NCBI GenBank assembly: GCA_041665345.1
Contig: JBAYJA010000003.1
Location: 103,202 to 167,201 of the forward strand
From: Patescibacteria group bacterium
Lineage (GTDB): Bacteria; Patescibacteriota; Patescibacteriia; PEXW01
Reading direction: 5' to 3'
DNA: 64,000 nucleotides
In this document: one piece after another, positions 19,101-62,819 of the stretch
Layout of the letters: every line of letters starts with the position of its first letter
How positions within the stretch are numbered: position 1 is the stretch's first letter
Program-made: the position numbers and the translations under genes
The notes under the pieces: model-generated
What the model saw: only the letters and a program-made list of their open reading frames with translations
Told to the model about the DNA's origin: nothing
The model's database searches: none

Positions 19101-21075
19101 CGCCGTAAGACACGTTCAGGTACGGCTCACCATTTGCGTTAATGGCATTTTCCGCGGCAAACGTCGGTGAAGGAAGAGCCTGGCCGTCATAGTAGGAGAA
19201 GAGGACACCGCCATTGCCGTGGAGCAGGTAGAAGCGATTGTCAGCAGTGCAGGCAATATCTGCGCCAGCGCCAGCAGCGGCAGGAGCAGTAAGCGTACTG
19301 AAGGCTTGATCCAGTGCTGCGTTTATGGGGAAGTTATACACTTGCGTATTGGTGCTGCCACCGCCACGGACAATGAATAAGTTTCCGCTTCCGTCGTAAC
19401 ACATTGCAGAGCCGGTTGAAAGCGCAGCAGGCGTGCTACTCACACTGGCTGCCCAGGTTCGGGCGCCAATCAGGTACCGGCGAATGGGAGCCGCCGCATT
19501 TGCTTGCGCCACGAATAGGCAACCGGACGCGTCGCTGCAATCTGCTCCGTTTGGTACGTAAGCGATGAGATTATCACCCGTAGTACTGGTTGCAGCTTGC
19601 GTGATGATTGCGTCCCACTTTGGCGTTCCCACATCGTACCGAACAAATTCTGGAACACCACCCAGAGTTGCGTACACGTACCCATTGAGGTAGATCATGG
19701 ATGCGCCTGCTGCGGTGGCCCGTTGGGTATTTTCCGTCGCGGCGGCATTCGCATCCCAGGTGCCACCCGAGCCAGAAATCGTATTCACATCGTATTTCAC
19801 GAATTCCGTGTTCCCGCCGTTGAAGACGTAAATGTCGTCATTCGTGTTATCGAATGCCATGGCACTGCCCGCTGCGATGTTGCCAGTACCAGTGTACGAA
19901 GGAAAATTTTGAAAATTTGTAAACCACTGCTCAAGTGCAAGGTCGTAACGGAAAAAGAAACGGTTACTACCCAGAACGCTATAGATACACCCCGTTGTGC
20001 AGTAGGTATCACTCCCGATGGTGAATGCAGTGTCAGAAAAGATTAGGGGGTGTGACGTGGTTGCGTTTACCGGGTCTGGCACGGATGTACCACTGGACCA
20101 GGCATTTGTCTGCGTGTCGTAAATGAAGAAGCCTGATTGCCCACCGCCTTGGACTGCGTAGAGTTTGCCATTGTTCCCGCTTTCAATGTCCGCGCCACCC
20201 TGTGCAGAAGTTGAGCCCCATACATCTGGCGCGTTGCTTAGCGTGGACCACGTGTCCGTGTAGATGTCGTACTTGAAGAATGCGCCGGTTGCGTCTGTCG
20301 TAGAAAGTCCGTCATTTCCGTTGATCGCGTAAATCGCGCCGTCGTAGTAGGTGATGGCGCTGCTATAGAGGAATGGCGTGGGCGCATCAGCAAGTTGCTT
20401 CCAGGTGTTCGTGTCTGGGTTGTACCGGAAGAAGTCAGGTTGCCGACCACCAACAATCATGTATACGTAACTACCATCAGTGGTCAGGTCCGTACCAATG
20501 TCAGCTGGTTCCGAAGCCAGACCGTAGTTCCCGCGGAGGTTTTCTGGAAAACCCGGCGTGCTGGCATCCCAGGTGCCAACCCCGCCGCTTTTGATGGTCA
20601 AACTCCCTGGGGTGGTTGCAGTGTCCAGGGTGTTGTTCCAAAATTCTCCCGCTTCCCAATCCGCTTGGCTAGAGACAACTCGCGTTTCCGCAACGGCCAG
20701 GATGCTGCGAACCGCAAAGATCATGCCTAGCGCTCCGAGGACAACAACTGCAGCCACGGTATAGCGTCGGTGATGTTCTTGGATCGAGATTTGCGCCTTG
20801 GTTACCTGTGGTCGGCTATTTCTGATGCTTGAAACAATTTTTGTAGCGTACCCTCGTGTTTTCTGTAAAAACCCCACGAATGTCAACGTTGTATTGTTGC
20901 TGGTACGCTTGTGGAAAGACCGGGTTTTTAGCGGAATTGACAAAGTAACCGGTTTTTTCGGTTTCTGAGGAGCTCGAGGGGTTTTTTTAGCTAATTTCAG
21001 CGAAAAATTTGACTTTTTCAGGCCTTTTTTCGCTGCTTTTTTGCCGTTTCGTGCCGACAAGCTAGAACGGGGCAT
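13165..21075 (-). CDS. Giant (2636-aa) membrane-anchored surface protein with kelch-type beta-propeller repeats and C-terminal fibronectin type III domains
   Basis: N-terminal TM YTVAAVVVLGALGMIFAV; many kelch-like units (YVYMIVGGRQPDFFRYNPDTNTWKQL...); C-terminal FN3-like units (...LTWDEPTDKGSGVEQYAIYR...); the AT-rich Lys-rich first ~90 codons may be 5' UTR, so the true start may lie downstream. Confidence 0.7.
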   Translation of the reverse strand: MPRSSLSARNGKKAAKKGLKKSNFSLKLAKKTPRAPQKPKKPVTLSIPLKTRSFHKRTSNNTTLTFVGFLQKTRGYATKIVSSIRNSRPQVTKAQISIQEHHRRYTVAAVVVLGALGMIFAVRSILAVAETRVVSSQADWEAGEFWNNTLDTATTPGSLTIKSGGVGTWDASTPGFPENLRGNYGLASEPADIGTDLTTDGSYVYMIVGGRQPDFFRYNPDTNTWKQLADAPTPFLYSSAITYYDGAIYAINGNDGLSTTDATGAFFKYDIYTDTWSTLSNAPDVWGSTSAQGGADIESGNNGKLYAVQGGGQSGFFIYDTQTNAWSSGTSVPDPVNATTSHPLIFSDTAFTIGSDTYCTTGCIYSVLGSNRFFFRYDLALEQWFTNFQNFPSYTGTGNIAAGSAMAFDNTNDDIYVFNGGNTEFVKYDVNTISGSGGTWDANAAATENTQRATAAGASMIYLNGYVYATLGGVPEFVRYDVGTPKWDAIITQAATSTTGDNLIAYVPNGADCSDASGCLFVAQANAAAPIRRYLIGARTWAASVSSTPAALSTGSAMCYDGSGNLFIVRGGGSTNTQVYNFPINAALDQAFSTLTAPAAAGAGADIACTADNRFYLLHGNGGVLFSYYDGQALPSPTFAAENAINANGEPYLNVSYGAALASNRTDVADATDVYALIGNGRGVLLKFNIAGDTWDELTNMPTAPGTNVAGAQYTNTMVYDRTDNLYVFPGKMSKEVWRYDMSGNSWSRAADAPVRLGRSHGVTHGNAAGTMYLMRGENFNGIHKFNFETDAYIPAATWVSAPMDLHYVSSFTSLTSNATLNGNTIDFSTRSSDDGASWSAWASVSGTTIASAANRYIQVKAQLNSAAGDDAPVLDDFTITYEKDSTAPANPTVSAWTSSAKTTTLATPATTFATNPYFEFTPPAQTESPISGYYVAWTSGASCSTFNPSTSEDYFQTGTTYTVNSSVVNGTQYCLRVATKDVAGNVSSAANLFLYTYTGISPAATRQWSSQADFAYTGTTATDVNTNASSGTALQLSAVSNGAWSSEAPLPAAVSNGAAIVGDGNGSLYILRGAGQQTFYHYNINTKVITAKTNYGAAVNTGASAVFVSSGATGCADASGCVFATRGATTTEWRRYDITANTWTAASPGAGSLTVLPLTAANGASLAYNGSDTIYFLGGSTAPSTRFYSYNLGTGVWTQRSDVDQTVGLGGALSYVPTNIGACTAAGGCVYATRGNNTSHFWKGTIASSGAVTWSYTTNIPVWTGDGAAIRRVGSYLYLIRGTASNGFYRFDLSTSTWTSMPTLPTIKGQGSEQGLAYDTATNTLYSLRGYNVEATVLAFDITRNLWKGTAIPHGFSTAGFSTGTMAYDTQTGYVYAGRGVTFSDWWQLNPTTNAWLRKADVPHTLSTGADAEYVNHGTDSYDGVYVLTGNEAQGDNVGFFYRYNPTTDVWTRLANTPGEPTAGADLVWDGTNTIYTAQGGTTAYYKYVISTNTWSTVASTIPVLNGSGSCAVRINVSGTDYIYLTRANSQANIYRFNIGTETWDAAATVESAPAVLVGADACVADGQGNILVPQGTTNTNMYVLDPDGDSNGVWTTRAVPQTYTNGQLVMTTNNVILGNRGTSTSAIDRYIVATASTGYEDFGQWTSEILDFGAGLYGFGGIAVNAAEATNTTMTVETRTCSDAGCAASATDSHWGSWTAVTNTHPVGTVKTSTVASTLARYGQARITFRSDQVATPTIYDVTWSSYTDGTDPTNPVSAGAYTDNGKTVSINPGDWTNDATPYFEWTGSDNAGGIGLEGFYVYFGTDNSCTDPSGAACNASNLAHVSGSHYYAVAGDGVTGSWNAASQSSTALTSGTYYLKIMSRDRNANVTDAAVTGFTFQVDVANPSAPGSIVATPAGYSSLNSFGFTWTAGSDTGGSGINQYCYTTEGPGATETCVSAATLSIANIQAYQARANVFKVRSRDLAGNYSSAYAPVNYYFSGNTPAAPQGLVVTPTSQTDNNTFSFSWGLPSSCLGQTPCDAADILRYCYTLNELPSADTCGYNTAGSATPSPDGGWTTTTQTADRSLAAFSAATKQGTNTFYLIAADAIGNIDYTAVASVDFTFTSTAPGAPGSVQAIDSSDRSTKRYSVTLTWDEPTDKGSGVEQYAIYRCTKESATATNCDGPSTTDEPPTNYSRIATNKTLGYLDLGLDSTKVYAYFLRAVGTGGALSGNSSIVAEQPEGRFTSPPPIVEGPIVAPDSFAAVVTWRTERTASSFVEFGTTVDALSKEQGTATQIDAHEVRVTGLQPKTTYFFRVKSIDIDENIAYSSIGQFTTLEAPRVENVKITDIRLNDAIISWTSTKEATAIIQYGPTTDYGFTYTAASGFSSTHTVKLENLKDSTTYHFRLEGVDRADNPIASDDYNFTTLTFPKILTVSAENKAEGQTEVKWTTNVQTTSEVEYYNENAAPKTQGNSSLVREHSILVFGLEDATEYKFKVRGRDQFGYEAVSGENKFRTLEDTTPPVISEVKSESNTVGSGDAAKIQIIVSWKTNEPTSSQVQYGEGLSGSSYSAETDENAERVRDHLVVIGGLTPAKTYHFRVVSKDKAGNESKSQGYSILTSRARQSFLQIVIGNLEDTFSWLGGVGNLFGG

Positions 21076-49665: not shown

Positions 49666-49752
49666 GTGAATACTATTGCACTAATCATCACAGGTGTTGC
49701 GTTCGTTGCTCTCGTTATTTTCCTTATACGCACTTCTCGAAAAGCTGAGTAG
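49666..49752 (+). CDS. Tiny membrane peptide (28 aa) ending RTSRKAE
   Basis: SD gcaggaggagg, GTG start; MNTIALIITGVAFVALVIFLIRTSRKAE; terminator gagctcgtctcccacgagctc-ttttt follows. Confidence 0.5.
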   Translation: MNTIALIITGVAFVALVIFLIRTSRKAE

Positions 49753-49871
49753 GGTCAGCTACGAGAAAACCCCTGAGCTCGTCTCCCACGAGCTCTTTTT
49801 GTTCGGCAGCATTGACAAAGTACACTTCCAGTGCTAGGGTTATGTGAAATAAATTAATCATAACCAAAGGA

Positions 49872-50240
49872 GTGAAAATGTCATTTTCAATGAAGAATCC
49901 TCGACCTGAAGTGACTGTATTTACCTGGTATGAGAACGATTTTGGGTATGCTCCCGACACGCTGCAGCTTTACGAGCGGGTACAAGAGTATATCCACGAT
50001 GAAATGATCACGGACATCGCATTTGATATGCGTCGGGTTCATCAGGTTAATGAACATGGTCTGAATCTGTTAGCCATTCTCCTCAGGGACATTCAGGCGG
50101 CGAAGCGGGTCTTTGTCCTACTGGGCAGTTCAAGAACAGTTCATTCTGCGCTCAAGCATGTCAATCCTGAGGCTCAGTTTCCAAGGTATCCCACTCTGAA
50201 AATGTACCTGGAAGCACTGCATAAGCAGCCTGCCCCATAA
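49872..50240 (+). CDS. STAS-domain protein (anti-sigma-factor antagonist SpoIIAA-like), paralog 1
   Basis: 122 aa; paralog of 50607..50969 with an identical C-terminus YPTL(K/D)MYLEALH(K/T)QPA. Confidence 0.65.
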   Translation: MKMSFSMKNPRPEVTVFTWYENDFGYAPDTLQLYERVQEYIHDEMITDIAFDMRRVHQVNEHGLNLLAILLRDIQAAKRVFVLLGSSRTVHSALKHVNPEAQFPRYPTLKMYLEALHKQPAP

Positions 50241-50387: not shown

Positions 50388-50507
50388 GTGGAAAATATTT
50401 CCCCGTTGGAAATTGCACTCCTCTGCATTGCAATTGCCGTACTCGTTCTCATTTCAAGGCGCAATTTTCGGAAGGCTGAAAAAGATCAGCCTAAGCAACA
50501 ATCCTGA
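50388..50507 (+). CDS. Tiny membrane peptide (39 aa) ending NFRKAEKDQPKQQS
   Basis: SD ttggagg, GTG start; same terminator sequence as after the first peptide. Confidence 0.5.
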   Translation: MENISPLEIALLCIAIAVLVLISRRNFRKAEKDQPKQQS

Positions 50508-50606
50508 GCTCGTCTCCCACGAGCTCTTTTTCTTGGTCGCTTGACGTACCATAGCTGAAGTTATAGGGTTTTCTCAACACTGTTCATCAACAAGGAAGGA
50601 GAAGAA

Positions 50607-50969
50607 ATGTTGTTTCCCATCGCGTATCCGAAACCAGAAGTCGCTGTCATTACCGTGACGGTGAAAGTTTTTGGGGTTTCTCCCGATACTCTCGGAATTC
50701 GTGAACAGGTGCAGGAGCTTTTGCGAGAAAAGAAAGTACAGCACTTTGTTCTTGATTTGCAACACGTTGATTGGATGAACAGCTCTGGACTCGGGCTGCT
50801 CATTAGCCTTCTGAAGTACATACGGGATGCTGATTGCACGCTTGCCCTGCTCTGTGTTTCTGGAAAAGTTGAAGGAATACTTTTGAACACGAAGCTGGAC
50901 AAGGTGCTCCAAAGTTATCCCACCCTGGATATGTACCTGGAGGCGCTCCACACCCAACCTGCTCGTTAA
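50607..50969 (+). CDS. STAS-domain protein, paralog 2
   Basis: 120 aa; terminator gctcaccc-ttttc-ggtgagc-ttttttt. Confidence 0.65.
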   Translation: MLFPIAYPKPEVAVITVTVKVFGVSPDTLGIREQVQELLREKKVQHFVLDLQHVDWMNSSGLGLLISLLKYIRDADCTLALLCVSGKVEGILLNTKLDKVLQSYPTLDMYLEALHTQPAR

Positions 50970-52559: not shown

Positions 52560-55223
52560 GTGTATCTCGAAAAGCTCACCATTCAGGGATTCAAATCCTT
52601 TGCCAACCGCACGGAGCTCTTGTTCCAGCGTGGGATTGCGGCCATTGTGGGGCCCAACGGCTCGGGGAAGTCCAACGTGGCTGACGCCATGCGCTGGGTG
52701 CTGGGCGAGCAGAGTTTGAAGATCATTCGCGGGAAGAAGAGCGAGGATGTGATTTTTTCGGGTTCGGACAAGAAAACCCGGCTGGGTATGGCTGAGGTGT
52801 CGTTGACGTTGGACAACCGCGAAGGCCGGGCGCCTATTGATTACAAGCAGCTCACGGTCACCCGGCGGATCCACAAGGACGGGACGTCGGAGTACCTGGT
52901 GAATGGTAGCCAAAGCCGACTGTCCGACATTCAGCTGCTGCTGGCGCGGTCCAACATTGGCCAGCGAACCTATTCGGTCATTGGCCAAGGGCAGGTGGAC
53001 GCCGTGCTGGTGGCCACACCCATGGAGCGTAAGCAGTTTTTTGACGAAGCGGCCGGGGTGCGGCCGTTCCAAATGAAGAAAGAGCAGGCGGAGAATAAGC
53101 TGGCTGCCACTCGGGAGAACGTGGCGCAGGCGCAGCTGCTGATTGATGAAATTGCCCCGCGGCTCCGCTCCCTTACCCGGCAGGTGAAGCGTTTGAATGA
53201 CCGCGAAGAGATTGCCAAGGAGTTGCGCGACTTCCAGGTGCAGGCATACAGCGCCAAAGTTGCGTTGCTGAACAAAGAACTCCATGCGGCGCAGAAGGAA
53301 TTGCAGAGTGCGGAAAAGGCCCAGGCAAGCGCGTTGGCTGAGTTGCAGAAGATTCAGCGTCAGGTAGACGCGGAAGAGCGCGGGAGCTCCCGGCACGAAC
53401 ACTTCACCAAGCTCCAGCGCACGCACCAAGAACTGATTGACCAGCGGAACCGGTTGCTTACGGATCGTGCTGCCTTGGCGGGAAAAGTTGCTGCAACCTT
53501 GTCCCAGGCTGGTCAAGCAAATGTTTCCTGGCTCACCCACCGGCAGGCAGAAATTGCTGGTCGCCTGAGCGCCATTGCTGAGGAGCGTGCAGCCAGCGAC
53601 CGGAAACGAGAGAAGCTCACCAAGCACATGGCTGAGGTGCAGGAGAAACTGCACAGCCACGCCAAAGGCATTCAAGAATTGGAAGCCGGGTTGCTCCGGG
53701 CGGAACAAGCGCTCAAAACTCGGACGACCCTCACCGTGCCAGACTTGGCCAAGGAAGTAGCCGAAGTGCTCACTGGCCACCAGAAGTTCATTGCGGCGGT
53801 ACGCGCGGCTGACTCTATTGACGCGCTGAAAGCTTTGCACGGGGAAGCGCACCGTCTGGATACCCGCGCCGCGAAGTTCTTGGACAAGCTCTCTGCGCAA
53901 ACCCCCAGCGTTGATCCTGCCCAGCTCATCATCCTGCAACGGTCACTCCACCAGCACATGCAGGAGAAGGAACAGGTGGCCAATGAAGAGCACACGTTGC
54001 ACACGGAGCAGCATGCTCTGGAAGAGCGGGACCACACCTTTGCAGATGAAGTGCGTCGCTTGGAGCACGAGCATGCCAACGTCGCCAAAGAGCTGAAGCT
54101 GGCGCAGCTGAAGCCTGGCTCCAAAGCTGAGGCGGATGCTGCCGTGGCGCAGGCGCAGGCTGAGGTGGATGGGCAGCTTGCTACTGTTGATCGAGAACTT
54201 GGGCAAGCGCGCCATGCATTGGATGGGTTTAACCAAACCGAGCAGGATAAACGGGACACGCTCTTTGCTTTGCAGAAAGCCGCCCGGAGTGCACAGGACG
54301 AAGCGCGGGTTGCCGAAGGCAAACTGGCGGACGCGCGGGTGCAGCTGGCTCGCTTGGAAACTCGGCAGGAAGATTTACTCCGGGAAATCCGGGCAGAACT
54401 ACCAGCCGAACTTGCAGCCAAAGCAGAAAAAGCCACCACGGTTCCGGATGCGGACGTGGCTGCCCTGGAAGACACGATTGCCAAAGCCAAGCACAATTTG
54501 GAACTCATTGGTGGCATTGATGAAAACGCCAAGCAAGAGTACGACCAGACCAATGAGCGCTACACTTTCCTCACCACGCAGGTGGATGATTTGACCAAGG
54601 CGGGTGCAGATTTGGAAACCGGGATTGCGAAATTGGAAGCAACCATCAAGGAGAAATTTGAAAAATCTTTTGATCGGGTGAGCGAAGAATTCACCAAGTA
54701 CTTCAAAATGCTGTTCAACGGTGGAAATGCCACCTTGCAATTGGTGAAAGAAGAAGTGGTTGATCCTGTGGACGTGGCTGACGATGAGGATGAAGATGAC
54801 GAGGACGAGGAAGAAGAAGTACTGGTGAAGCCAAAAGCCAAGGGTGAGAAGGTGGTGACTGGCGTGGAAATATTCGCCACCCCACCCGGCAAGCGCCTGC
54901 GCGGCATAGCCATGCTCTCCGGTGGTGAACGGGCGTTAACCTCCATTGCCCTCATCTGCGCCATCCTGGCTTCCAATCCCTCCCCCTTCGTGGTGCTGGA
55001 TGAAGTGGATGCGGCACTCGATGAGTCCAACTCCATCCGCTTTGCGCAAATTCTGTCCAAGCTAGCGCACCGCACGCAGTTCATTACCATCACCCACAAC
55101 CGCGCCACCATGGCGGAAGCCGCCCTGCTCTACGGCGTGACTATGGGTGATGACGGCGTGTCCAAGCTCCTGTCCGTGAAAATGGAAGATGTCGGTAAGG
55201 TCATTGCAGGGGTGAAGAAGTAG
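52560..55223 (+). CDS. smc: Chromosome segregation protein SMC (short, 887 aa)
   Basis: GTG start; Walker A GPNGSGKSN; signature LSGGERALTSIAL; Walker B VVLDEVDAALD; long coiled coils. Confidence 0.85.
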   Translation: MYLEKLTIQGFKSFANRTELLFQRGIAAIVGPNGSGKSNVADAMRWVLGEQSLKIIRGKKSEDVIFSGSDKKTRLGMAEVSLTLDNREGRAPIDYKQLTVTRRIHKDGTSEYLVNGSQSRLSDIQLLLARSNIGQRTYSVIGQGQVDAVLVATPMERKQFFDEAAGVRPFQMKKEQAENKLAATRENVAQAQLLIDEIAPRLRSLTRQVKRLNDREEIAKELRDFQVQAYSAKVALLNKELHAAQKELQSAEKAQASALAELQKIQRQVDAEERGSSRHEHFTKLQRTHQELIDQRNRLLTDRAALAGKVAATLSQAGQANVSWLTHRQAEIAGRLSAIAEERAASDRKREKLTKHMAEVQEKLHSHAKGIQELEAGLLRAEQALKTRTTLTVPDLAKEVAEVLTGHQKFIAAVRAADSIDALKALHGEAHRLDTRAAKFLDKLSAQTPSVDPAQLIILQRSLHQHMQEKEQVANEEHTLHTEQHALEERDHTFADEVRRLEHEHANVAKELKLAQLKPGSKAEADAAVAQAQAEVDGQLATVDRELGQARHALDGFNQTEQDKRDTLFALQKAARSAQDEARVAEGKLADARVQLARLETRQEDLLREIRAELPAELAAKAEKATTVPDADVAALEDTIAKAKHNLELIGGIDENAKQEYDQTNERYTFLTTQVDDLTKAGADLETGIAKLEATIKEKFEKSFDRVSEEFTKYFKMLFNGGNATLQLVKEEVVDPVDVADDEDEDDEDEEEEVLVKPKAKGEKVVTGVEIFATPPGKRLRGIAMLSGGERALTSIALICAILASNPSPFVVLDEVDAALDESNSIRFAQILSKLAHRTQFITITHNRATMAEAALLYGVTMGDDGVSKLLSVKMEDVGKVIAGVKK

Positions 55224-55421
55224 GAAGCAGCCGTAAAGCCGTAAGCCATAAAGCTATAAGGGCAATAGTGGTTTTTTCCTTTAGCATTTGGTCATAGGAA
55301 AATAGAGAGGGGCAAACCCGCCATCTCCACCTTCCGATCCATAACGCTACCCAAAACCAAAACCTTCATCCCCCCGCCCCCTCTTGACGCATTCCCCCAT
55401 TCCCAGTACACTCTCCTCACT

Positions 55422-55910
55422 ATGGTTTCTATCCGACTTAGCCGCACTGGCAAAAAGAATCACGCGACCTTCCGCTTTATCGTGTCTGATAAGCAGCGGG
55501 ACACGGTTGCGCCTGCTTTGGAAATCTTGGGCTGGTACGATCCACATACGAATCCTGGCACCATTGAAGTGAAAGCTGACCGGGTGCAGTACTGGCTGAG
55601 CAAAGGCGCCCAAGCTTCCCCCAGCGCGCACAATCTTTTGGTTACGGCCGGGGTTATCAAGGCTGACAAAGTTGTGGTCGCCAAAGCCAAGAAGAAGGAC
55701 GAACCCAAGGTTGAGGAAAAACCTGCAGCAGCCCCAAAGGCCGAAGCCCCCAAAGCCGAGGAGAAAAAGGAAGAAGCTCCGGCAAATGCAGAAGAGCCAA
55801 AGATTGAAGTACCCAAGGCTGAAGTAAAACCTGAAGAAAAGAAGGAAGAGGCTCCAGCTACTGAAGCACCGAAGGCGGAGGAGAAGAAAGCGGAAGAAAC
55901 GAAGAACTAG
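55422..55910 (+). CDS. rpsP: 30S ribosomal protein S16 with a Lys/Ala/Pro/Glu-rich C-terminal extension
   Basis: MVSIRLSRTGKKNHATFRFIVSDKQRDTVAPALEILGWYDP; terminator agagccgagaggctct-ttttct. Confidence 0.9.
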   Translation: MVSIRLSRTGKKNHATFRFIVSDKQRDTVAPALEILGWYDPHTNPGTIEVKADRVQYWLSKGAQASPSAHNLLVTAGVIKADKVVVAKAKKKDEPKVEEKPAAAPKAEAPKAEEKKEEAPANAEEPKIEVPKAEVKPEEKKEEAPATEAPKAEEKKAEETKN

Positions 55911-55958
55911 GAACCTAGAACGTAGAACAGAGAACCAGAGAGCCGAGAGGCTCTTTTT

Positions 55959-56043
55959 CTGTCATCCTGAGTCCCGTCGCGGGGCGAAGGATCTCCGAAG
56001 GTTGTACATTCTCAGGAGATCCTTCGAAGACTCAGGATGACAG
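55959..56043. repeat. Palindromic element, copy 1 (about 27-nt inverted arms GTCATCCTGAGTCTTCGAAGGATCTCC around a TTGTACATT-containing loop; the left arm carries a 12-nt insertion)
   Basis: ctgtcatcctgagtc[ccgtcgcggggc]gaaggatctccgaaggttgtacattctcaggagatccttcgaagactcaggatgacag. Confidence 0.8.
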
Positions 56044-56121
56044 AGGAGGATTTGACACCCCTCACCCCCAGACGTAAGCTGGGTGGAATGCACATTGAAA
56101 ACCCATTAGGAGGATCAGAAT

Positions 56122-56550
56122 ATGGCGAAGAAACAAGTTCGAAACATGAGAACCGTTTTGACTGCAGCCCAAGCTCGAAAAGCATCAAAACGTGGGCGGC
56201 AGATTGCGACCGTTGCACAAGAAAAGAAGCAGACTGAAGCGCAAGCAAATTGGGCCAAACATATTCTACAAGGCAAGAAGCTTGCCCCGGCGTACTTTTT
56301 GGAGACCGTGCAGCCCCAAATTGCAGCAGCGACCGCTCGGGGTCAGCATGCAGTTTCCATTACCGTGCACAACAATCAGGGAGAAAACTACAACCTCAGT
56401 CCTCTCCTGAGTGGTTTAGTGTCTGGTCTCCTCAAAAAGTTGAAAGGCTTGGGATACACAGCGACATCAAAGTCAAAGTATAACAAGACATTCGGTAGCG
56501 ATGACCCGTACGGTAACGCGACCTACTTCACCCTGGAAATTTCCTGGTAA
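56122..56550 (+). CDS. Hypothetical protein (142 aa)
   Basis: SD taggagg; TTGACA-like box at 56052 just after the palindromic element. Confidence 0.45.
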   Translation: MAKKQVRNMRTVLTAAQARKASKRGRQIATVAQEKKQTEAQANWAKHILQGKKLAPAYFLETVQPQIAAATARGQHAVSITVHNNQGENYNLSPLLSGLVSGLLKKLKGLGYTATSKSKYNKTFGSDDPYGNATYFTLEISW

Positions 56551-56597
56551 CGAACCTTTCCACCCTACTTTGCTGGGCAGAGCAAGAACTATAATCC

Positions 56598-56641
56598 CTA
56601 AACCATAGCCGACGGTAGACAACCTAGGTACTGGAGAAAAA
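56598..56641 (+). promoter_or_regulatory. Conserved 5' leader CTAAACCATAGCCGA(C/T)GG...CCTAGG...ACTGGAG(G)A, copy 1 of 3 (others 57358..57404 and 58148..58192), each preceded by a TATAAT-like -10
   Basis: Three-way alignment upstream of the paralogs P1-P3. Confidence 0.65.
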
Positions 56642-57238
56642 ATGGACAATGCACATCTCGACGCTTTCTTAAAACATCTGCAAGCCAAGCGTTTGCTCCT
56701 TCGAGTAAAAGAATATCAGGGTTCACCGCCTCACTTGCCGCGTCGCAAGATTTGGCTACTGACTTCGGTTAGTCCCGAGAAAACATCTCATACCAAGCCT
56801 CTCATTCAGGTAGTGTTTTCAGAATTCGTTACTGATGTAGTTAAGCCAATAATGACACTTGACGTGACATTAGGCACCATTTTGGATTTTGGTAAGACAA
56901 AGCAACATGGTGAGTTTTTTGACCAGATTTGGTCAGAATGGTCCCGAAACAACTTGTTGGGTCGTAATGTTACCCAAGAAGCAATACAGGTACGGCTTAT
57001 GCAAAATCCTGGACGGTCGGATTTCTCCTACCAATGCCCCGAGACGCTCTCGCTGTACTCGATTCAGCTTATGCTCTCATTTGGATCTTTACGAGCACTG
57101 CTTGTTCGTGAGATTGAGGGCGGATGGGGAGAGAGAGAAGTTGCACTCTCAGTGCTTTTCAAGCGATTCGATGGTTTTCTCAAAGAGTTGCAAAGTAATT
57201 GGAATACGGTTACCACGCAGCTCAAAATGATAGTCTAA
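56642..57238 (+). CDS. Fast-evolving cassette paralog P1 (198 aa), unknown function
   Basis: Shares with P2/P3 the N-terminal helix + (I/L)(I/L)VR motif and a C-terminal L..F.GF...I..G block; own terminator gacagtcctgcccgactgtc-ttttttt. Confidence 0.55.
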   Translation: MDNAHLDAFLKHLQAKRLLLRVKEYQGSPPHLPRRKIWLLTSVSPEKTSHTKPLIQVVFSEFVTDVVKPIMTLDVTLGTILDFGKTKQHGEFFDQIWSEWSRNNLLGRNVTQEAIQVRLMQNPGRSDFSYQCPETLSLYSIQLMLSFGSLRALLVREIEGGWGEREVALSVLFKRFDGFLKELQSNWNTVTTQLKMIV

Positions 57239-57404
57239 TATTACCAGACAGTCCTGCCCGACTGTCTTTTTTTTGACAAAAATATTCCCAAGGTGTTAAA
57301 TGAGTATTCGTACATTTACAATTCTCATAGGGCAATTTGGGAATATTTGATTTCACCCCTAAACCATAGCCGATGGCCCGTGCGCCTAGGCGATTGGAGG
57401 AATC

Positions 57405-57995
57405 ATGTCCACACCACAAGAAGATCCTAAGCTGCAAAAGCAGCTCGCATCAAGTTCACTTCTCGAGCTGGCGTCGACTAAAATTGTTGTTCGAACGCAC
57501 ACGGATGTTGAGTACCAGGATGCCGCATCTTTCGCTGCATGTAGAGAAGATCGCGCATTCTTTACAACTGAAGTTGTCTGCTTCGCAACTGCATTTACCG
57601 GAAAACCCGGCCTGCTTACCCGCGCAAGCATGGTTCTTGAAAGTAGATGTCATCCCGACCTTGCAAGTCGCATTGGCCTCCGCGTGTATGACCAGAGGAA
57701 AAGTGAAGATGTAGAGGAGCTTCGGGCCTACCTTGAAGATTGGATAGTACGTCGGCCAATTTGGTTGGAACCCTTGGCATCAGTCCATAGCCAGGCCAGC
57801 AATATTGTCCCAACGCACGTTCCTGTCGATGGCCGTTCAGTGCACCACTTACTCTGCTATGCAGCCATTGAAACTCGGCTACGTGCTATTCTTAGCCAAG
57901 ATGCCGCAATAGCATTGTCCTCTCGTTTCAGTGGGTTCTTTGATGCGAGAATCCAAGAATTACAGAGAAGCGGTCGTTACCTGCGGAATAGCTAG
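57405..57995 (+). CDS. Cassette paralog P2 (196 aa)
   Basis: Same promoter/leader/terminator architecture; terminator ggacagtcaatatcggctgtcc-tttttt. Confidence 0.55.
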   Translation: MSTPQEDPKLQKQLASSSLLELASTKIVVRTHTDVEYQDAASFAACREDRAFFTTEVVCFATAFTGKPGLLTRASMVLESRCHPDLASRIGLRVYDQRKSEDVEELRAYLEDWIVRRPIWLEPLASVHSQASNIVPTHVPVDGRSVHHLLCYAAIETRLRAILSQDAAIALSSRFSGFFDARIQELQRSGRYLRNS

Positions 57996-58192
57996 ATCTT
58001 TTCTCGTCGTTCACGAACGGCACGAAATAGAGGACAGTCAATATCGGCTGTCCTTTTTTATTTGACATGCTGCTACAAGCAGCGTTAGAGTAAGGCATTC
58101 GTTCATTCACAATCTTCTTAGGGCAGTTTGAAGATATTATAATCAATCTTAAACCATAGCCGACGGTAGAAACCTAGGCGACTGGAGGAAAT

Positions 58193-58729
58193 GTGACTAA
58201 AGAAAAAGATGCGTTGCTAGCCTTAGCACGCAAACAGATTATCGTCAGGTTTGCGATCACGTTGCATGAGAAGGAAATTCGGGGTGACCTCATTGTTTTT
58301 ACGGTCGTTCATTCCAAGGCAATACTCATCTACAAACGCTACAATCAGATGGGTCACACTTGGGAGCACAGTATTGATCAGGGCATGAGCACCTTTGATC
58401 TCAACATAGAACAGCGGCGCTCCGCATTTTGGAGTAATCTTGAGGGATTATCGAAGGCGTATACTTGTATTGATGCGTATTTTCCTGCGGAGCAGTTTGT
58501 TGGTCGGTTTACGACAGTGGATGCTAGTGGATGTGCGTGTTCGCCGTCAAGTCCATTTTTCCTGATGTGCTGCGCCTCGTTGTTCACTGAAATCGGCTTA
58601 GCAGCGTATCCAGAAACGTACATGAGCCGGGAAGAGCGTCATACTTTGCAAGATCGTCTCTCAAGTTTTATAGCCGATTACGTGAATCGAATTCGTCAAA
58701 CTGGATCGGCAATCTTTGTGAAGCAGTAG
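58193..58729 (+). CDS. Cassette paralog P3 (178 aa)
   Basis: GTG start after ctggagg; terminator ggacaggtctgcccacctgtcc-ttttttt. Confidence 0.55.
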   Translation: MTKEKDALLALARKQIIVRFAITLHEKEIRGDLIVFTVVHSKAILIYKRYNQMGHTWEHSIDQGMSTFDLNIEQRRSAFWSNLEGLSKAYTCIDAYFPAEQFVGRFTTVDASGCACSPSSPFFLMCCASLFTEIGLAAYPETYMSREERHTLQDRLSSFIADYVNRIRQTGSAIFVKQ

Positions 58730-58808
58730 GGGAATTTTTTAAGGACAGGTCTGCCCACCTGTCCTTTTTTTCGTACAAAAAAGGCGCTCCACACGGAACG
58801 CCAGCATG

Positions 58809-58988
58809 TTACTCACCTTGGTTTGCGGACTTTTTGATGATCCTCAGGCAAATCAACCAGGTGGCAATGATTGCGCCTACGCTTGACCAGACTACTGTTG
58901 TGTCCCAACTAGCTAGATAAGCCCCTAGAAAAAACAAGCATCCAAGGCATATGGAAATGTAGAGCATGCTTCTCTTACTTTTTTGCAT
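58809..58988 (-). CDS. Small membrane protein (59 aa), not in the ORF track (<60 aa)
   Basis: SD aggagaaaaa + ATG; MQKSKRSMLYISICLGCLFFLGAYLASWDTTVVWSSVGAIIATWLICLRIIKKSANQGE. Confidence 0.45.
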   Translation of the reverse strand: MQKSKRSMLYISICLGCLFFLGAYLASWDTTVVWSSVGAIIATWLICLRIIKKSANQGE

Positions 58989-59165
58989 TTTTTCTCCTCG
59001 TGAGCAGTGTTCATGGAATTTTGATTCACGCTAACATGTGAGAAGCGTATCGTCAATCCTACTAAAATAACGAATGGTTGCAGAAATACTCGGTATTAAA
59101 ATCGGCCTCATTTCCCAGAAAAAACTGACGGAAAAATTATTTTCCGTCAGGGGGGTTGCTGCCAC

Positions 59166-59396
59166 TTAGGCAAAAACGAGCATATCATCAACGAGCACTT
59201 CAATGGCTAATTCCTCGTTGCCAGTCAAATCAAGAACGAGTGAAGCAAAGTTTGCGTGCTCCCCGCCTATGGCCTTCATGATTGCGTGTTTCGCGGCTCG
59301 TTCCGCCAGGATGAGTCGGGCGTTTTCTTCTGGGTCAGTGGATCGCTGTTTTTCCGGGATCGTGCCCCGGCCGAAGCAGAGTGGGCAAGTATGCAT
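59166..59396 (-). CDS. Hypothetical small CxxC protein (76 aa)
   Basis: MHTCPLCFGRG...; terminator-like palindrome 59470..59510 further downstream, separated by about 0.1 kb. Confidence 0.35.
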   Translation of the reverse strand: MHTCPLCFGRGTIPEKQRSTDPEENARLILAERAAKHAIMKAIGGEHANFASLVLDLTGNEELAIEVLVDDMLVFA

Positions 59397-59772
59397 TTTT
59401 TCTCCAGTTCGTAAGTTTTTTGGTTTCGCATCAAGCCTATTCCTAAGGCTACCTGCGTGTCAAGGAGTGGTTTGGTCGATGAATAAAAAGACACTCTCCA
59501 GGGAGTGACCATGTTCGTTTCTCGTTTATTTCCCAATACCCACTACCCCCCTACGCTCAGAAGCTCCGGCGGGCGGGCAGCTCTACCCCTCGATTCGTCT
59601 GACTCACTCGGGGCTCCGACCAAAGCGTCGGAGCAGCTTTATACCTCTATACCTTCTTCTTTTGACACCCTCCCCTACCTCTGCTATTTTTTTAGCACAG
59701 CGATACCGGTCCTGAAGAGTCGCAGGATACACGGTTCCTGGCAGTCCTTTCCCCAGTTTAACCAACGCCGAT

Positions 59773-60135
59773 ATGGCCGAAGAGCAGTTTGAAGACGCGC
59801 AGTTTGTGGAGTTTGTGGTGAAGTCCATTGTGGACAACCCACAGGAAGTAAAGGTAGAACGCATTGTGGATGAAATGGGTGTGCTGTGCACGTTGCATGT
59901 GAACCCAGCAGACCTGGGTCAGGTCATTGGCCGCCAGGGGCAGACTGCCAAGAGCATTCGCACCTTGCTGCGGGTGGTGGGCGCCAAGAACCATGCCCGG
60001 GTGAACATGAAGATCTACGAACCCGAAGGCTACCGCAAGCACAAAGGGGAAATGGGTGGGAAGCGGATGGATGACCAACCCGCAGCCCCTGCTGCCGCGC
60101 CAAGTGAAGACCTGGCCGACGACCTGAAACTCTAA
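59773..60135 (+). CDS. khpA: KH-domain RNA-binding protein KhpA (UPF0109/YlqC) with an acidic/Pro-rich C-tail
   Basis: FVEFVVKSIVDNPQEVKVERIVDEMGVLCTLHVNPADLGQVIGRQGQTAKSIRTLLRVV. Confidence 0.8.
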   Translation: MAEEQFEDAQFVEFVVKSIVDNPQEVKVERIVDEMGVLCTLHVNPADLGQVIGRQGQTAKSIRTLLRVVGAKNHARVNMKIYEPEGYRKHKGEMGGKRMDDQPAAPAAAPSEDLADDLKL

Positions 60136-60252
60136 GTAATAAGAAAACTCCTGGTAGCACTACCGGGAGTTTTTGGTATAGACAGATTTTTTGCCTGGAG
60201 TATACTCATTTTGACATTGCCCTTTGGCGAACAGAAATCCTTGGAGGAAATC

Positions 60253-60279
60253 ATGTTTTATCCGGAAGATGGAGAATAG
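60253..60279 (+). CDS. Micro-ORF MFYPEDGE (8 aa)
   Basis: SD ttggagg 5 nt upstream; followed 1 nt later by the next micro-ORF. Confidence 0.35.
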   Translation: MFYPEDGE

Positions 60280-60280
60280 T

Positions 60281-60346
60281 ATGAAGCAGCTGCTCTATCC
60301 TGATGGCGGGGAGAAGCCACTGCGACACCCCGAAGACTCCGAATAG
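60281..60346 (+). CDS. Micro-ORF MKQLLYPDGGEKPLRHPEDSE (21 aa)
   Basis: ggag inside the upstream micro-ORF serves as SD; terminator agagcgaccaaatggccgctct-ttttttc follows. Confidence 0.4.
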   Translation: MKQLLYPDGGEKPLRHPEDSE

Positions 60347-60482
60347 GGTGAGACCCTGTTTAGCACATTCCGAAGAGCGACCAAATGGCCGCTCTTTTTT
60401 TCATCTTTACAAAAAGTTTGCTTTTTGCTACCTTTTGTTTATCGATCAGAGAAAAGAAATCCCTTCTTTGACTGGAGGTAGA

Positions 60483-60584
60483 ATGTCAAAAAAGTTCCTT
60501 GGTGCGGGCAGCGAAACGCAGAAGCTCTTTGATGCCAGTACAGGCTGTCACAGATCGCTCGGTGGCGGTATTGACGGCAGCTAA
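60483..60584 (+). CDS. Micro-ORF MSKKFLGAGSETQKLFDASTGCHRSLGGGIDGS (33 aa)
   Basis: SD ctggagg + tagaATG. Confidence 0.4.
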   Translation: MSKKFLGAGSETQKLFDASTGCHRSLGGGIDGS

Positions 60585-60705
60585 AGCCAAAAAAGCTGCG
60601 TCAGAACCCATGTTCATTATCAGGGCGTGCTAGCAATAGCCGCCCTTGATTTTCTATTTCTCAGGTGTAGTATGGGGATATCCAAACAAACATCGAGGTT
60701 GTGTA

Positions 60706-60738
60706 ATGAAAAAACTTGAACCTTCGGATGGAGGGTGA
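60706..60738 (+). CDS. Micro-ORF MKKLEPSDGG (10 aa)
   Basis: SD gagg; stop overlaps the SD of the next micro-ORF. Confidence 0.35.
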   Translation: MKKLEPSDGG

Positions 60739-60740
60739 TT

Positions 60741-60809
60741 ATGCGAGGTCAACTCCTTGACCCAACCATTGGCGGGTACCCAATGCGGGATCCCACTGAC
60801 GGCGGCTAG
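60741..60809 (+). CDS. Micro-ORF MRGQLLDPTIGGYPMRDPTDGG (22 aa)
   Basis: SD ggaggg; terminator agacggctactctctgagcagccgtct-ttttctt follows. Confidence 0.4.
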   Translation: MRGQLLDPTIGGYPMRDPTDGG

Positions 60810-60927
60810 AGCGAAGCGCTCAAGCCATACCTAGACGGCTACTCTCTGAGCAGCCGTCTTTTTCTTGACGCATTTTTTGGGTGATGGTAGACAGAGGGAA
60901 AGGAATGATACACATTGGAGGTAGAAA

Positions 60928-61350
60928 ATGCACATTGTTATTGAAGAGCATGGCGATTTGCTGGTTGTAGCAGTGGAAGGCAGATTGGAAAGTGGTCTTG
61001 AGGCGGCAGAATTGAGCAGGTATTTTTCCCAAGCGTTTCAGGCGAATCGAGGACTGATTGTTGACCTTTCTCAATGTGAGGAGCTTGGCCCGCCGGCCTG
61101 CAGCATTCTTGTATACTATGCGAGTAAGTACAAGACCGCGCAGCTCTTCCTCTGCCTGATCATTACACCAGAGCAAGAAGGATTGCAGCAGGTGCTTGCC
61201 TCGCAACTTTTCAATAATTTTTCCATCTTTGAGAATGTCGACTTGGCTGATGCTGCGTATGCGAAGAGTCCAGAGAAGCAGCGGGCCGATAACGCCCTCC
61301 TCAGGTACATGGCAGAGCGTGCGACTGATGCTGAGCTTCGAGGTGAGTAA
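60928..61350 (+). CDS. STAS-domain protein, paralog 3
   Basis: SD ttggagg; HIVIEEHGDLLVVAVEGRL...; terminator gggcgatcgaataccggtcgccc-ttttttt. Confidence 0.6.
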   Translation: MHIVIEEHGDLLVVAVEGRLESGLEAAELSRYFSQAFQANRGLIVDLSQCEELGPPACSILVYYASKYKTAQLFLCLIITPEQEGLQQVLASQLFNNFSIFENVDLADAAYAKSPEKQRADNALLRYMAERATDAELRGE

Positions 61351-61630
61351 TCCTGGGACACATACACCATGGGCGATCGAATACCGGTCGCCCTTTTTTT
61401 ATCCTTGTTCCCTCATTTGCAAAGATATATACTCTCGGCAGATCCTAGGAGGTCTCATGAAACGTATTGGGCTTGTTGATGGTGGTTTCTCCCCATTGCA
61501 TGAGGGAGACGACGGAGGGCAGCTCATTTTTGGGAAGCGGCTGGTGCATACTGGCCGCTTTTTCATATTCCCTTGACCCTGTTGAAGCTAGTTGCTAGGG
61601 TTGGGGCAAAGAAAACTGATTGGAGGTTTT

Positions 61631-61990
61631 TTGAAAATTAAAGTAAAAGCGCAAGGCCCACTTTTGGTCATAGCAATTGACGGCCGAATGGCCGTGCCAC
61701 ACGACATTGCAACCTTTGATGATCAACTGAGTGAAATTCGAAACGACGGTCGTGGAGTAATCATCGATCTCACCAAATGTGCGTGGATTCCTTCGTCGGG
61801 TTTAAGCATTCTCATTTACCAGTACAAGCAGTACCGCGGTGCGAAATTGCCAATTTGCATGGTCCTTGGTACCAACGATAAGATTGGCAGAATTATGGTC
61901 ATATCACGGCTAGCTGAAGTTTTCCAACAGTACAGTACTGTTGAGGAGGCTGCGGAGGGGATGACTTCAAGTTCTGATGCAAGGAAGTAG
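61631..61990 (+). CDS. STAS-domain protein, paralog 4
   Basis: TTG start after attggagg (the ORF track starts 13 codons upstream); LKIKVKAQGPLLVIAIDGRM...; terminator gggcgatccaatgtgggtcgccc-ttttttt. Confidence 0.55.
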   Translation: MKIKVKAQGPLLVIAIDGRMAVPHDIATFDDQLSEIRNDGRGVIIDLTKCAWIPSSGLSILIYQYKQYRGAKLPICMVLGTNDKIGRIMVISRLAEVFQQYSTVEEAAEGMTSSSDARK

Positions 61991-62055
61991 CAAGTCCTGC
62001 CTAACAGGTGAAAGTATTGTGTACGGGCGATCCAATGTGGGTCGCCCTTTTTTTA

Positions 62056-62133
62056 CTGTCATCCTGAGTCTTCGAAGGATCTCCAAAGTTTTTTACATTG
62101 TCTGGGGATCCTTCATATGATTCAGGATGACAG
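62056..62133. repeat. Palindromic element, copy 2 (same ~27-nt inverted arms as 55959..56043)
   Basis: ctgtcatcctgagtcttcgaaggatctccaaagttttttacattgtctggggatccttcatatgattcaggatgacag. Confidence 0.8.
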
Positions 62134-62171
62134 AGGGGAGGGCAGAGCCGCCAGTCTGCTACAATGGCAGT

Positions 62172-62819
62172 ATGCAATTCGACATTATTACCGTCATACC
62201 CGAAGCGTTTGGGTACCTGGAGCAGAGCATTCTGGGTCGGGCGCAGAAGGGCAAGAAAATCAGCGTTCGAATCCATGACCTACGGAAGTGGACCACGGAC
62301 AAGCACCGGACCGTGGATGACCGGCCGTATGGCGGCGGGCCAGGCATGCTCCTGAAAGCTGAACCACTGTACAAAGCAATTTCCGCGGTCAAGAAAAAGC
62401 GCGGCAAGGTAAAGGTCGTGCTGATGAGCGCAAAGGGTGAAAGTTTCACCCAGGCACTGGCTCGGAAGTGGACGAAGCTGGATCAGCTGGTCTTCATTGC
62501 TGGCCGGTACGAAGGCGTGGACGAGCGCGTGCTGCAGTACGTGGACGCAGAAATTTCCACGGGTGATTTTGTGCTGACTGGTGGTGAGCTGCCTGCCATG
62601 GCCATCATTGATGCCGTGGCGCGGTTGCTGCCTGGGGTGTTGGGCAAAGATGCTTCGAGTGCTGATGAGTCACACACGGAAGCTGGGCTCTTGGAGTACC
62701 CGCAGTACACCCGGCCAGAAGTGTTCAAGCGGAAGCGCGTGCCAAAGGAGCTCCTGTCTGGTGACCACAAAGTCATTGCCGCCTGGCGGCAGAAACACCG
62801 TACTCGGCGGAAGGTATGA
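62172..62819 (+). CDS. trmD: tRNA (guanine37-N1)-methyltransferase
   Basis: MQFDIITVIPEAF...RPYGGGPGMLLKAEP...FIAGRYEGVDERV...TGGELPAMAIIDAV. Confidence 0.9.
   Translation: MQFDIITVIPEAFGYLEQSILGRAQKGKKISVRIHDLRKWTTDKHRTVDDRPYGGGPGMLLKAEPLYKAISAVKKKRGKVKVVLMSAKGESFTQALARKWTKLDQLVFIAGRYEGVDERVLQYVDAEISTGDFVLTGGELPAMAIIDAVARLLPGVLGKDASSADESHTEAGLLEYPQYTRPEVFKRKRVPKELLSGDHKVIAAWRQKHRTRRKV

Follow-up and report, generated by a model that had tools for sequence, protein, structure and literature searches.

In Escherichia coli and Bacillus subtilis, the canonical trmD operon consists of rpsP, (khpA), rimM, trmD, and rplS, with rnc-smc-ftsY-ylxM-ffh-rpsP-khpA as the upstream order in B. subtilis. 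Rows of small genes are also known from integrons, the cassettes of which are promoterless, lie in one orientation, and each end in attC. For bacteria of the Candidate Phyla Radiation (CPR), the ribosome maturation factor RimM has been described as "missing in most CPR genomes" (Meheust et al. 2019, PMC6744442) and as "nearly absent" (Mol Biol Evol 2025, PMC12641178); the portions of these two papers that concern RimM, KhpA, or TrmD treat RimM presence or absence only and do not cover local gene order or spacers. Here, the rpsP-khpA-trmD region was analyzed in a 64-kb stretch of Patescibacteria (CPR) DNA, hereafter the window, in which the two intervals between these genes are filled with small genes, micro-ORFs, and palindromic elements. 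An original prediction, made from the sequence of the window, had described this arrangement as a conserved operon fragmented by repeated insertion of autonomous cassettes, accompanied by loss of rimM and relocation of rplS. The comparative evidence presented below instead makes it likely that the region reflects ordinary local turnover of lineage-specific genes between separately transcribed core genes, and not a recently wrecked operon.

Relatives were identified by a TrmD scan with one genome retained per species, and the window proteins were mapped by tblastn onto all 80 comparison loci, which are designated by L-numbers. The closest TrmD sources were Patescibacteria (CPR) metagenome-assembled genomes (MAGs), namely L004 (93% identity), L005 (73%), and L006 (67%, a Parcubacteria MAG), and the proteins of the window itself are listed by NCBI under Patescibacteria group bacterium. 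An assembly artifact was rejected, as the arrangement is identical across three independent assemblies (ENA, JGI, and Logan contigs). Pfam analysis gave the window gene order as L32, nusB, rnc, smc, rpsP, khpA, trmD, and a gene for an MFS transporter, with extra genes interspersed, and gene tables together with tblastn revealed the same backbone order and strand in nine relatives, all with a KhpA identity of 75% or more. The window carries, in other words, the backbone typical of its Patescibacteria clade. The large gaps noted originally are real, amounting to 3.86 kb between rpsP and khpA and 2.0 kb between khpA and trmD vs. the 45-550 nt and 50-300 nt, respectively, that are usual in CPR-type relatives. 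The positions given for rpsP, khpA, two STAS genes, trmD, and rplS beside a gene resembling that for the major vault protein (MVP) likewise agree with Pfam assignments. The core genes and their signals are as follows.

55384-55412, forward strand: promoter-like site of rpsP, TTGACG-17-TACACT, with the ATG 10 nt after the -10 box; the same in L004 and L005
55422-55910, forward strand: rpsP (ribosomal protein S16), PF00886, E 1.5e-15, with orthologues in relatives; the product has a C-terminal tail rich in Lys/Glu/Ala/Pro
55940-55958, forward strand: intrinsic terminator of rpsP, as read from the sequence, with an equivalent in L005
59662-59772, forward strand: promoter-like site of khpA, TTGACA-17-TATTTT, plus a conserved 5′ leader
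59773-60135, forward strand: khpA (KH-domain RNA-binding protein), PF13083 (KH_KhpA-B), E 3.5e-21
60145-60174, forward strand: terminator of khpA
62157-62165, forward strand: extended -10 box of trmD, TGCTACAAT, ending 6 nt before the ATG
62172-62819 (ORF open from 62127), forward strand: trmD, tRNA (m1G37) methyltransferase, PF01746, E 2e-57; the ATG at 62172 agrees with the starts in relatives, and the 3′ end runs into the beginning of the MFS transporter gene that follows

The layout of these signals bears directly on whether an operon was present to be fragmented. In the window, terminators follow rpsP, khpA, and almost all inserted units. In L005, the most compact relative, the T-run of the rpsP terminator merges into the TTGACA-17-TATTTT promoter of khpA, and downstream of khpA come a terminator and, a few bases short of the trmD start codon, a -10 box, such that a predicted terminator and a promoter-like site lie between each gene pair despite gaps of only 165 and 52 nt. 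Boxes equivalent to the trmD -10 box are also present in L204, L209, and L211. Neither rpsP nor trmD has a Shine-Dalgarno sequence, and their -10 boxes end 6-10 nt ahead of the ATG, as they do in L005, L204, L209, and L211, implying a leaderless trmD mRNA and a nearly leaderless rpsP mRNA, if these boxes serve as promoters. The khpA leader, in turn, contains an element of ~40 nt at 59703-59744 (ACCGGTCCT..AGTCGCAGGAT..CGGT..CTGGC) that is kept in six of nine aligned sequences, the window included, with a different hairpin in the remaining relatives; RNAalifold returned no consensus structure for this leader, because relatives assemble it from different pieces. The fragmented operon that was originally proposed is difficult to reconcile with inter-gene terminators and promoter-like sites in so compact a relative. 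It rather appears that rpsP, khpA, and trmD were separate transcription units before any insertion and that the backbone genes probably never formed one operon in this clade. It is precisely the stretch from a predicted terminator to the following promoter that takes up inserted DNA; with the backbone genes already separate units, such a stretch would have been a harmless site for it.

The content of both spacers varies extensively among relatives.

L005: rpsP-khpA 165 nt, empty; khpA-trmD 52 nt, empty
L209: rpsP-khpA 190 nt, empty; khpA-trmD 485 nt, one micro-ORF
L210: rpsP-khpA 135 nt, empty; khpA-trmD 326 nt, one micro-ORF
L004: rpsP-khpA with hyp142 and casB; khpA-trmD with micro-ORFs and one STAS gene
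L006: rpsP-khpA with a 312-residue protein of membrane-bound appearance; khpA-trmD ~500 nt
L204: rpsP-khpA with a 158-residue protein; khpA-trmD with micro-ORFs
L211: rpsP-khpA with a 225-residue protein; khpA-trmD with micro-ORFs
L207: rpsP-khpA empty; khpA-trmD with a 179-residue cas-like gene and a 121-residue gene

In addition, more distant CPR genomes have occasional large gaps at the same junctions (L025, L052, and L056). From these comparisons, both spacers appear to be recurrent sites of gene gain, and none of the loci compared carries more in them than the window. Synteny thus far bears out only part of the insertion scenario: L005, L209, and L210 are compact and L004 has fewer units, but rimM is absent and rplS separate there too. 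In the window, the rpsP-khpA spacer holds, in order, a hairpin (hairpin 1, described below), hyp142, casA, casB, casC, and two small genes on the reverse strand.

56122-56550, forward strand: hyp142, an orphan with a promoter-like TTGACA at 56052-56057, no terminator of its own, and no Pfam match
56642-57238, forward strand: casA, an orphan of 198 residues with a terminator at 57246-57275; its unit, 56563-57360, is absent from L004
57405-57995, forward strand: casB, an orphan of 196 residues with a terminator at 58029-58063
58193-58729, forward strand: casC, 178 residues, with a terminator at 58741-58773; absent from L004
58809-58988, reverse strand: sm59, a small protein with a ribosome-binding site and a terminator at 58783-58802; absent from L004
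59166-59396, reverse strand: sm76, a CxxC small protein with a ribosome-binding site and a terminator at 59125-59150

The claim that each inserted unit carries its own promoter-like and terminator signals holds for most units, which also have ribosome-binding sites, but not for hyp142, which is without a terminator; the two small reverse-strand genes are each equipped with a ribosome-binding site and a terminator, as originally described. By eye, sm59 looks like a two-helix membrane protein. None of the inserted genes in this spacer has a Pfam match, and, among the inserted genes of both spacers other than the micro-ORF m3 (see below), which these two scans did not cover, PADLOC detected no defense system and PHROGs gave a single weak match, of hyp142 to phrog_5321 (E 2e-5). 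The hyp142 copy in L004 (6853-6895) carries a 1-nt frameshift after ~11 codons, with the remainder under purifying selection, which marks it as a recent pseudogene unless the assembly is in error.

Alignment of the window with L004 by blastn yielded collinear blocks interrupted by two whole-unit indels and one replacement. L004 is without the casA unit (56563-57360) and without a block containing casC and the two reverse-strand genes (58063-59635), while the segment 60933-62126, from the start codon of the first STAS gene to the end of the second hairpin, is replaced by one STAS gene (38% identical) and a different hairpin between flanking DNA that is 78-84% identical. Over the same time, the core genes accumulated a synonymous divergence (dS) of ~0.9. 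At the casA site, the L004 junction is casA-type 5′ and casB-type 3′ of a shared AAACCATAGCCGA; because this junction fits recombination between two leader copies, it suggests that L004 lost casA rather than that the window gained it. Overall, the filling of the spacers by self-contained gene units appears to be comparatively recent. What survives of the proposed repeated insertion is, therefore, that the spacers are filled by independent gene units, but probably no functional operon was broken by them.

The three cas genes are similar in size, have terminators with related stems, and are each preceded by a leader of ~45 nt with the consensus AAACCATAGCCGAYGG-N-CCTAGGCGAYTGGAGGA-ATG. The leader folds as a three-stem hairpin, the 3′ strand of which enters the GGAGG ribosome-binding site. 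A covariance model (R1) was built from six leader copies and applied first to 47 sources and later to eight more loci, giving seven instances in four genomes.

56598-56645, forward strand: leader hairpin copy A, ahead of casA, R1 48 bits, overlapping the casA Shine-Dalgarno sequence
57359-57408, forward strand: leader hairpin copy B, ahead of casB, R1 65 bits, conserved in L004
58149-58196, forward strand: leader hairpin copy C, ahead of casC, R1 62 bits
Further copies: L004 7324-7373; L207 8750-8798; L173 2165-2215 and 2219-2269

The L207 copy, which was outside the R1 model set, scored 44.9 bits (E 3e-12) and precedes a 179-residue distant homologue of casC (L207_179; BLASTP E 2.5e-4, 24% identity over the full length) that is located in the khpA-trmD spacer. 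In L173, an unrelated metagenome contig, a tandem pair of leaders precedes an orphan gene of ~171 residues beside sugar-metabolism genes. The leader copies are 80-90% identical, and aligning all seven gives 95% paired cells and two pairs changed on both sides. The leader of sm76 resembles the 3′ half of the motif, with a weak R1 match of 14.6 bits; a marginal R1 match in L010 was rejected, as it is antisense within an ORF. The motif has no match among Rfam families or in a scan of viral contigs, and at permissive thresholds Rfam returned, for 55200-62300, only a chance match of a hairpin to a microRNA model. A metagenome scan with the 16-nt leader core produced at least 120 single-copy matches; among the matches listed, all except L173 were due to chance. 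The overlap of the predicted hairpin with the ribosome-binding site makes control of translation its most likely role. Beyond the motif, a profile of casA, casB, and casC searched against 1.84 billion representative proteins recovered the three inputs and a repetitive protein of 982 residues, which was taken as spurious. In general, searches of 5.8 billion proteins and of these representatives detected relatives of the spacer genes only within the clade.

The khpA-trmD spacer is occupied by micro-ORFs and two STAS genes.

60253-60279, forward strand: micro-ORF m1, MFYPEDGE
60281-60346, forward strand: micro-ORF m2, MKQLLYPDGGEKPLRHPEDSE
60374-60401 and 60833-60863, forward strand: micro-ORF terminators
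60483-60584, forward strand: micro-ORF m3, ending in ...GGGIDGS
60706-60738, forward strand: micro-ORF m4, MKKLEPSDGG
60741-60809, forward strand: micro-ORF m5, MRGQLLDPTIGGYPMRDPTDGG
60928-61350, forward strand: STAS gene 1, 140 residues, PF01740, E 8.5e-4, with a terminator at 61371-61400
61457-61576, forward strand: micro-ORF m6, 39 residues with DGG motifs, called as a gene in L001
61631-61990 (ORF open from 61592), forward strand: STAS gene 2, 119 residues, probably starting at TTG 61631, PF01740, E 3.8e-7, with a terminator at 62025-62054

The micro-ORFs comprise 8-63 codons and encode Asp/Pro/Gly-rich peptides, many of which end in DGG while others contain GGGIDG[ST] and often a Cys; none has an NCBIfam match. 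The peptides are kept at the amino-acid level in five relatives, namely L004 (8620-9285; near-identical to those of the window), L204 (8500-8720; MRKLLDPTDGDQRLRDFPNGG, plus one ending in ...GGGIDGTQKLRGEDGC), L207 (9992-10170; MQGKHFEPSDGG, plus one containing ...GGGIDGS...), L210 (7495-7575; MKKLMDPTIGGGDGG...), and L211 (4207-4640; three micro-ORFs of that type). Between the window and L004, the micro-ORFs differ by 11 synonymous and eight non-synonymous codon changes, a serine switch from TCC to AGC among them. In compact relatives, the layout runs from the khpA terminator through a promoter, the micro-ORF or micro-ORFs, and a terminator to trmD, and a hairpin precedes trmD in several relatives, as detailed below. 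Because the positions of the micro-ORF unit and the pre-trmD hairpin are conserved across the clade, both appear to be part of its ancestral spacer and not the recent insertions for which they had been taken. Specific to the window and L004 are the multiplied micro-ORF units and the STAS genes.

Detection of the STAS fold was firmer for the second STAS gene than for the first: with PF01740 (cut-off 22.6 bits) the scores were 30.3 and 19.5 bits, and with TIGR00377 (cut-off 53 bits) they were 41 bits (E 1e-10) and a weak 18 bits, respectively. The terminators of the two genes are 87% identical (repeat D4) while their proteins are merely 25-29% identical, a pair that, as judged from these identities, seems to show the same pattern of conserved flanks around a diverged coding sequence. 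Four STAS copies occur within 12 kb, each adjoining a micro-ORF. The rnc-smc interval holds two tandem copies (49666-50240 and 50388-50969) of a module in which an ORF of 28-39 residues, by appearance a single membrane helix, is joined by a STAS gene and by a terminator region similar in both; the STAS proteins there are 40% identical, with a common C-terminal motif, YPTL.MYLEALH.QPA. The window genes resemble the single-domain STAS anti-sigma-factor antagonists SpoIIAA and RsbV in that a STAS fold is likewise detected; they differ in that no partner kinase or phosphatase turned up among the window ORFs scanned, no search having been aimed at such partners.

Both palindromic elements reported originally are genuine, folding with z scores well beyond those of shuffled sequence.

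55958-56044: hairpin 1, with outer arms CTGTCATCCTGAGTC/GACTCAGGATGACAG and inner arms CGAAGGATCTCC/GGAGATCCTTCG, fold z -6.8
62056-62133: hairpin 2, immediately 5′ of trmD, fold z -8.3

They are the sole matches to the 13-nt arm of the element in the 64 kb. The element found in L004 at the hairpin 1 site shares its ends but not its interior. Hairpins with GTCAT...ATGAC arms precede trmD in L004, L011, and L211, an arm of GTCATTGCGAG is found there in L204, and L209 and L210 have degenerate resemblances only. Hairpins with GTCAT[CT]C[CG]GAGCG...ATGAC arms were also encountered in other phyla, in L035 (10686-10769, Chthoniobacterales) and L072 (1065-1180, Dehalococcoidia), one of them directly 3′ of trmD, such that the repeat type must be very widespread. 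The repeat type is not known to have a formal name or a transposase, and a literature search for the arm sequence retrieved unrelated primer sequences only. As in repetitive extragenic palindromic (REP) sequences, bacterial interspersed mosaic elements (BIMEs), and miniature inverted-repeat transposable elements (MITEs), these are hairpins of 80-130 nt with terminal inverted repeats (GTCAT[CT]..GAG...CTC..ATGAC) that lie in intergenic DNA just after terminators. Unlike those elements, they are present in only two copies in 64 kb, and the pre-trmD position is occupied in several relatives with differing sequence.

Taken together, these data would fit the following course of events, which we regard as likely. 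Each backbone gene has its own promoter-like site and an intrinsic terminator behind the gene, and extra DNA would be tolerated in the short stretches from a terminator to the next promoter. Comparison among relatives shows that small genes have been gained, lost, and swapped there as whole promoter-to-terminator units, which are probably added or removed through recombination between short shared regulatory sequences such as the leader hairpin and the similar terminators. Tandem duplication followed by fast divergence may account for the related flanks, and within the khpA-trmD spacer an older micro-ORF unit has multiplied.

Several points weigh against this explanation. The genes casA, casB, and casC, labeled originally as three cassette paralogs, have no significant mutual protein similarity (BLASTP E 0.39, 0.15, and 13) and share the leader motif, terminators, and size instead; their duplication and subsequent divergence is inferred from these shared flanks and similar sizes. 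With no outgroup carrying casA or casC, either a gain or a loss could account for the difference at each of these two genes. The promoter calls are consensus matches only, with 12 found vs. 7.3 expected by chance. Covariation in the leader is modest, its score being reached by eight of 500 shuffles, with seven sequences in an alignment that was itself fitted to R1. The CPR label of some loci is similarity-based, and several records bear obviously mistaken titles ("uncultured Gammaproteobacteria"). Finally, the search for rimM within this genome covered 64 kb.

Three other explanations were weighed against gene turnover between separate units. A recombinase-driven cassette system of the integron or transposon type, with the hairpins or the leader as recombination sites, is improbable. 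In its favor, the module of a leader and a gene for ~180 residues sits in differing places, namely the rpsP-khpA spacer of the window and L004, the khpA-trmD spacer of L207, and the vicinity of sugar-metabolism genes in L173; moreover, the hairpins lie at the edges of filled spacers with just two copies in 64 kb, and the STAS block has been replaced exactly between conserved flanks. However, Pfam analysis of ~50 window ORFs and the gene tables of relatives revealed no integrase or transposase, no attC-like site was found at unit ends, the units have their own promoters and mixed orientation, and a scan of viral contigs yielded no copy of the leader motif. The pre-trmD hairpin, for its part, also occurs in L204 and L211 without inserted genes there. 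With no recombinase, transposase, or attC-like site in any of these scans, the term autonomous cassettes, as first applied to the units, is an overstatement.

The model put forward in the original prediction, in which a contiguous operon was recently broken by mobile cassettes in an event that included rimM loss and the move of rplS, can draw on gaps far above those of most relatives, on units that bear their own signals, and on the smaller number of units in the closest relative, L004. It is nevertheless very unlikely, given the history of rimM and rplS. A RimM profile was built from gap-filling ORFs of 14 non-CPR loci, one of which was verified as RimM by Pfam. Applied to six-frame ORFs, it matched 17 non-CPR loci and gave zero matches in the six-frame translation of the window or in ~45 CPR-type loci, in agreement with the statement that no rimM lies between khpA and trmD. 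In non-CPR loci, a gap of 530-690 nt is present 5′ of trmD and rplS is located 3′ of it; in CPR-type loci, khpA is usually 50-300 nt ahead of trmD, leaving no space for rimM, and the 10 kb 3′ of trmD are free of rplS except in one locus, where it lies at 6.5 kb. In the window, rplS indeed lies ~30 kb away on the other strand near the MVP-like gene, as confirmed by Pfam.

32688-33095, reverse strand: rplS (ribosomal protein L19), PF01245, E 2.5e-34, 30 kb from trmD and on the opposite strand to it
32601-32687, reverse strand: tRNA-Leu, directly after rplS
29255-32341, reverse strand: MVP-like gene, 1028 residues, with shoulder and repeat domains (PF11978, E 7e-15; PF17795)

Domains of the major vault protein are unusual in bacteria. 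Given the profile search of relatives and the literature for rimM, and the gene order of relatives for rplS, a missing rimM and a separate rplS are old, phylum-wide states. Both are shared by CPR-type relatives, and the lineage-wide condition that was named from the outset as speaking for an old arrangement, against recent insertions, is what was found, for rimM in ~45 CPR-type loci as well as in the literature and for rplS in the gene order of CPR-type loci. L005 is already without both genes and already has inter-gene terminators, and the micro-ORFs and the pre-trmD hairpin appear to be ancestral to the clade, all of which runs counter to a recent breakup. Outside CPR, loci from Planctomycetota, Verrucomicrobiota, and Omnitrophota were observed in which rimM is not beside trmD, rpsP or khpA abuts trmD, and rplS is still downstream (loci without rimM beside trmD: L026, L029, L030, L032, L036, L042, L051, and L083).

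Selection on the inserted genes addresses whether they are genes at all. Among 5.8 billion proteins, casB retrieved itself and its L004 orthologue (84% identity) only, and hyp142 itself only; in the comparison with L004, their ratios of non-synonymous to synonymous substitution (dN/dS) amount to 0.20 and 0.14, respectively, vs. 0.03-0.07 for core genes. Thus casB and hyp142 are real genes under purifying selection. That the gap material is non-functional, consisting of decayed remnants of rimM or other genes or of spurious ORFs, is accordingly given hardly any credence, even with most ORFs lacking homologues or known domains, an AlphaFold model of casB with a predicted local distance difference test (pLDDT) score of 36, and the apparent frameshift near the start of L004 hyp142, since it is opposed by the selection just described, by micro-peptides kept through synonymous changes and across five relatives, by well-formed ribosome-binding sites and terminators, by a RimM profile that finds no remnant, and by an ancestral khpA-trmD spacer of ~50-300 nt that is too small for a decayed rimM.

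With turnover of lineage-specific genes as the favored explanation, the headline of a wrecked operon that lost rimM dissolves into known CPR biology, in which gene order around trmD is loose. The window offers a small-scale example of how tiny CPR genomes add or swap lineage-specific genes between a terminator and the next promoter. Its by-products may be of use to work on small proteins and RNA regulation, and include the leader before hyper-divergent orphans, the micro-ORFs upstream of trmD, and the recurrent pre-trmD hairpin. The first of these may constitute a portable module in which a leader of ~45 nt over the ribosome-binding site is followed by a gene for ~170-200 residues at varying chromosomal sites, the leader being kept while the proteins would have diverged beyond recognition. 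The micro-ORF unit may, likewise, consist of Asp/Pro/Gly-rich peptides of 8-60 residues (..EPSDGG, ..GGGIDG[ST]) and a hairpin, followed by leaderless trmD. That these two are real regulatory or peptide systems of the clade is a tentative and rather doubtful proposition; if true, the micro-ORF unit could be a small-peptide system or a sensor tuning trmD expression. Elsewhere in the window, a tRNA-Ile with anticodon TAT was found at 35948-36024 on the forward strand, a tRNA that is an uncommon bacterial means of reading AUA codons, as well as a single ORF of 2636 residues at 13165-21075 on the reverse strand.

Compared with the canonical trmD operon, the window keeps the order and shared strand of rpsP, khpA, and trmD, and its upstream rnc and smc recall B. 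subtilis. It differs in that rimM is absent, rplS is 30 kb off on the other strand, and an MFS gene follows trmD, and in that predicted terminators, separate promoters, and kilobases of unrelated genes lie between the core genes. Integron arrays are similar in their rows of small, mostly unknown genes, repeated boundary sequences, and content that varies between relatives; in contrast to them, the window units have no intI, attI, or attC, possess their own promoters and terminators, and in two cases lie on the opposite strand. In lacking rimM, the window is like the reduced CPR ribosome-biogenesis set, to the extent that this is described in the RimM passages of PMC6744442 and PMC12641178. Unlike flexible genomic islets, the window slots are tiny (0-4 kb), occur several in a row between housekeeping genes, carry no tRNA, integrase, or phage hallmark, and hold units that share short regulatory sequences. 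Like such islets, they combine conserved flanks with varying, mostly orphan content that is gained, lost, or replaced as whole units. The phylum-wide absence of rimM has already been published; what is new is this example of small flexible slots between CPR core genes.

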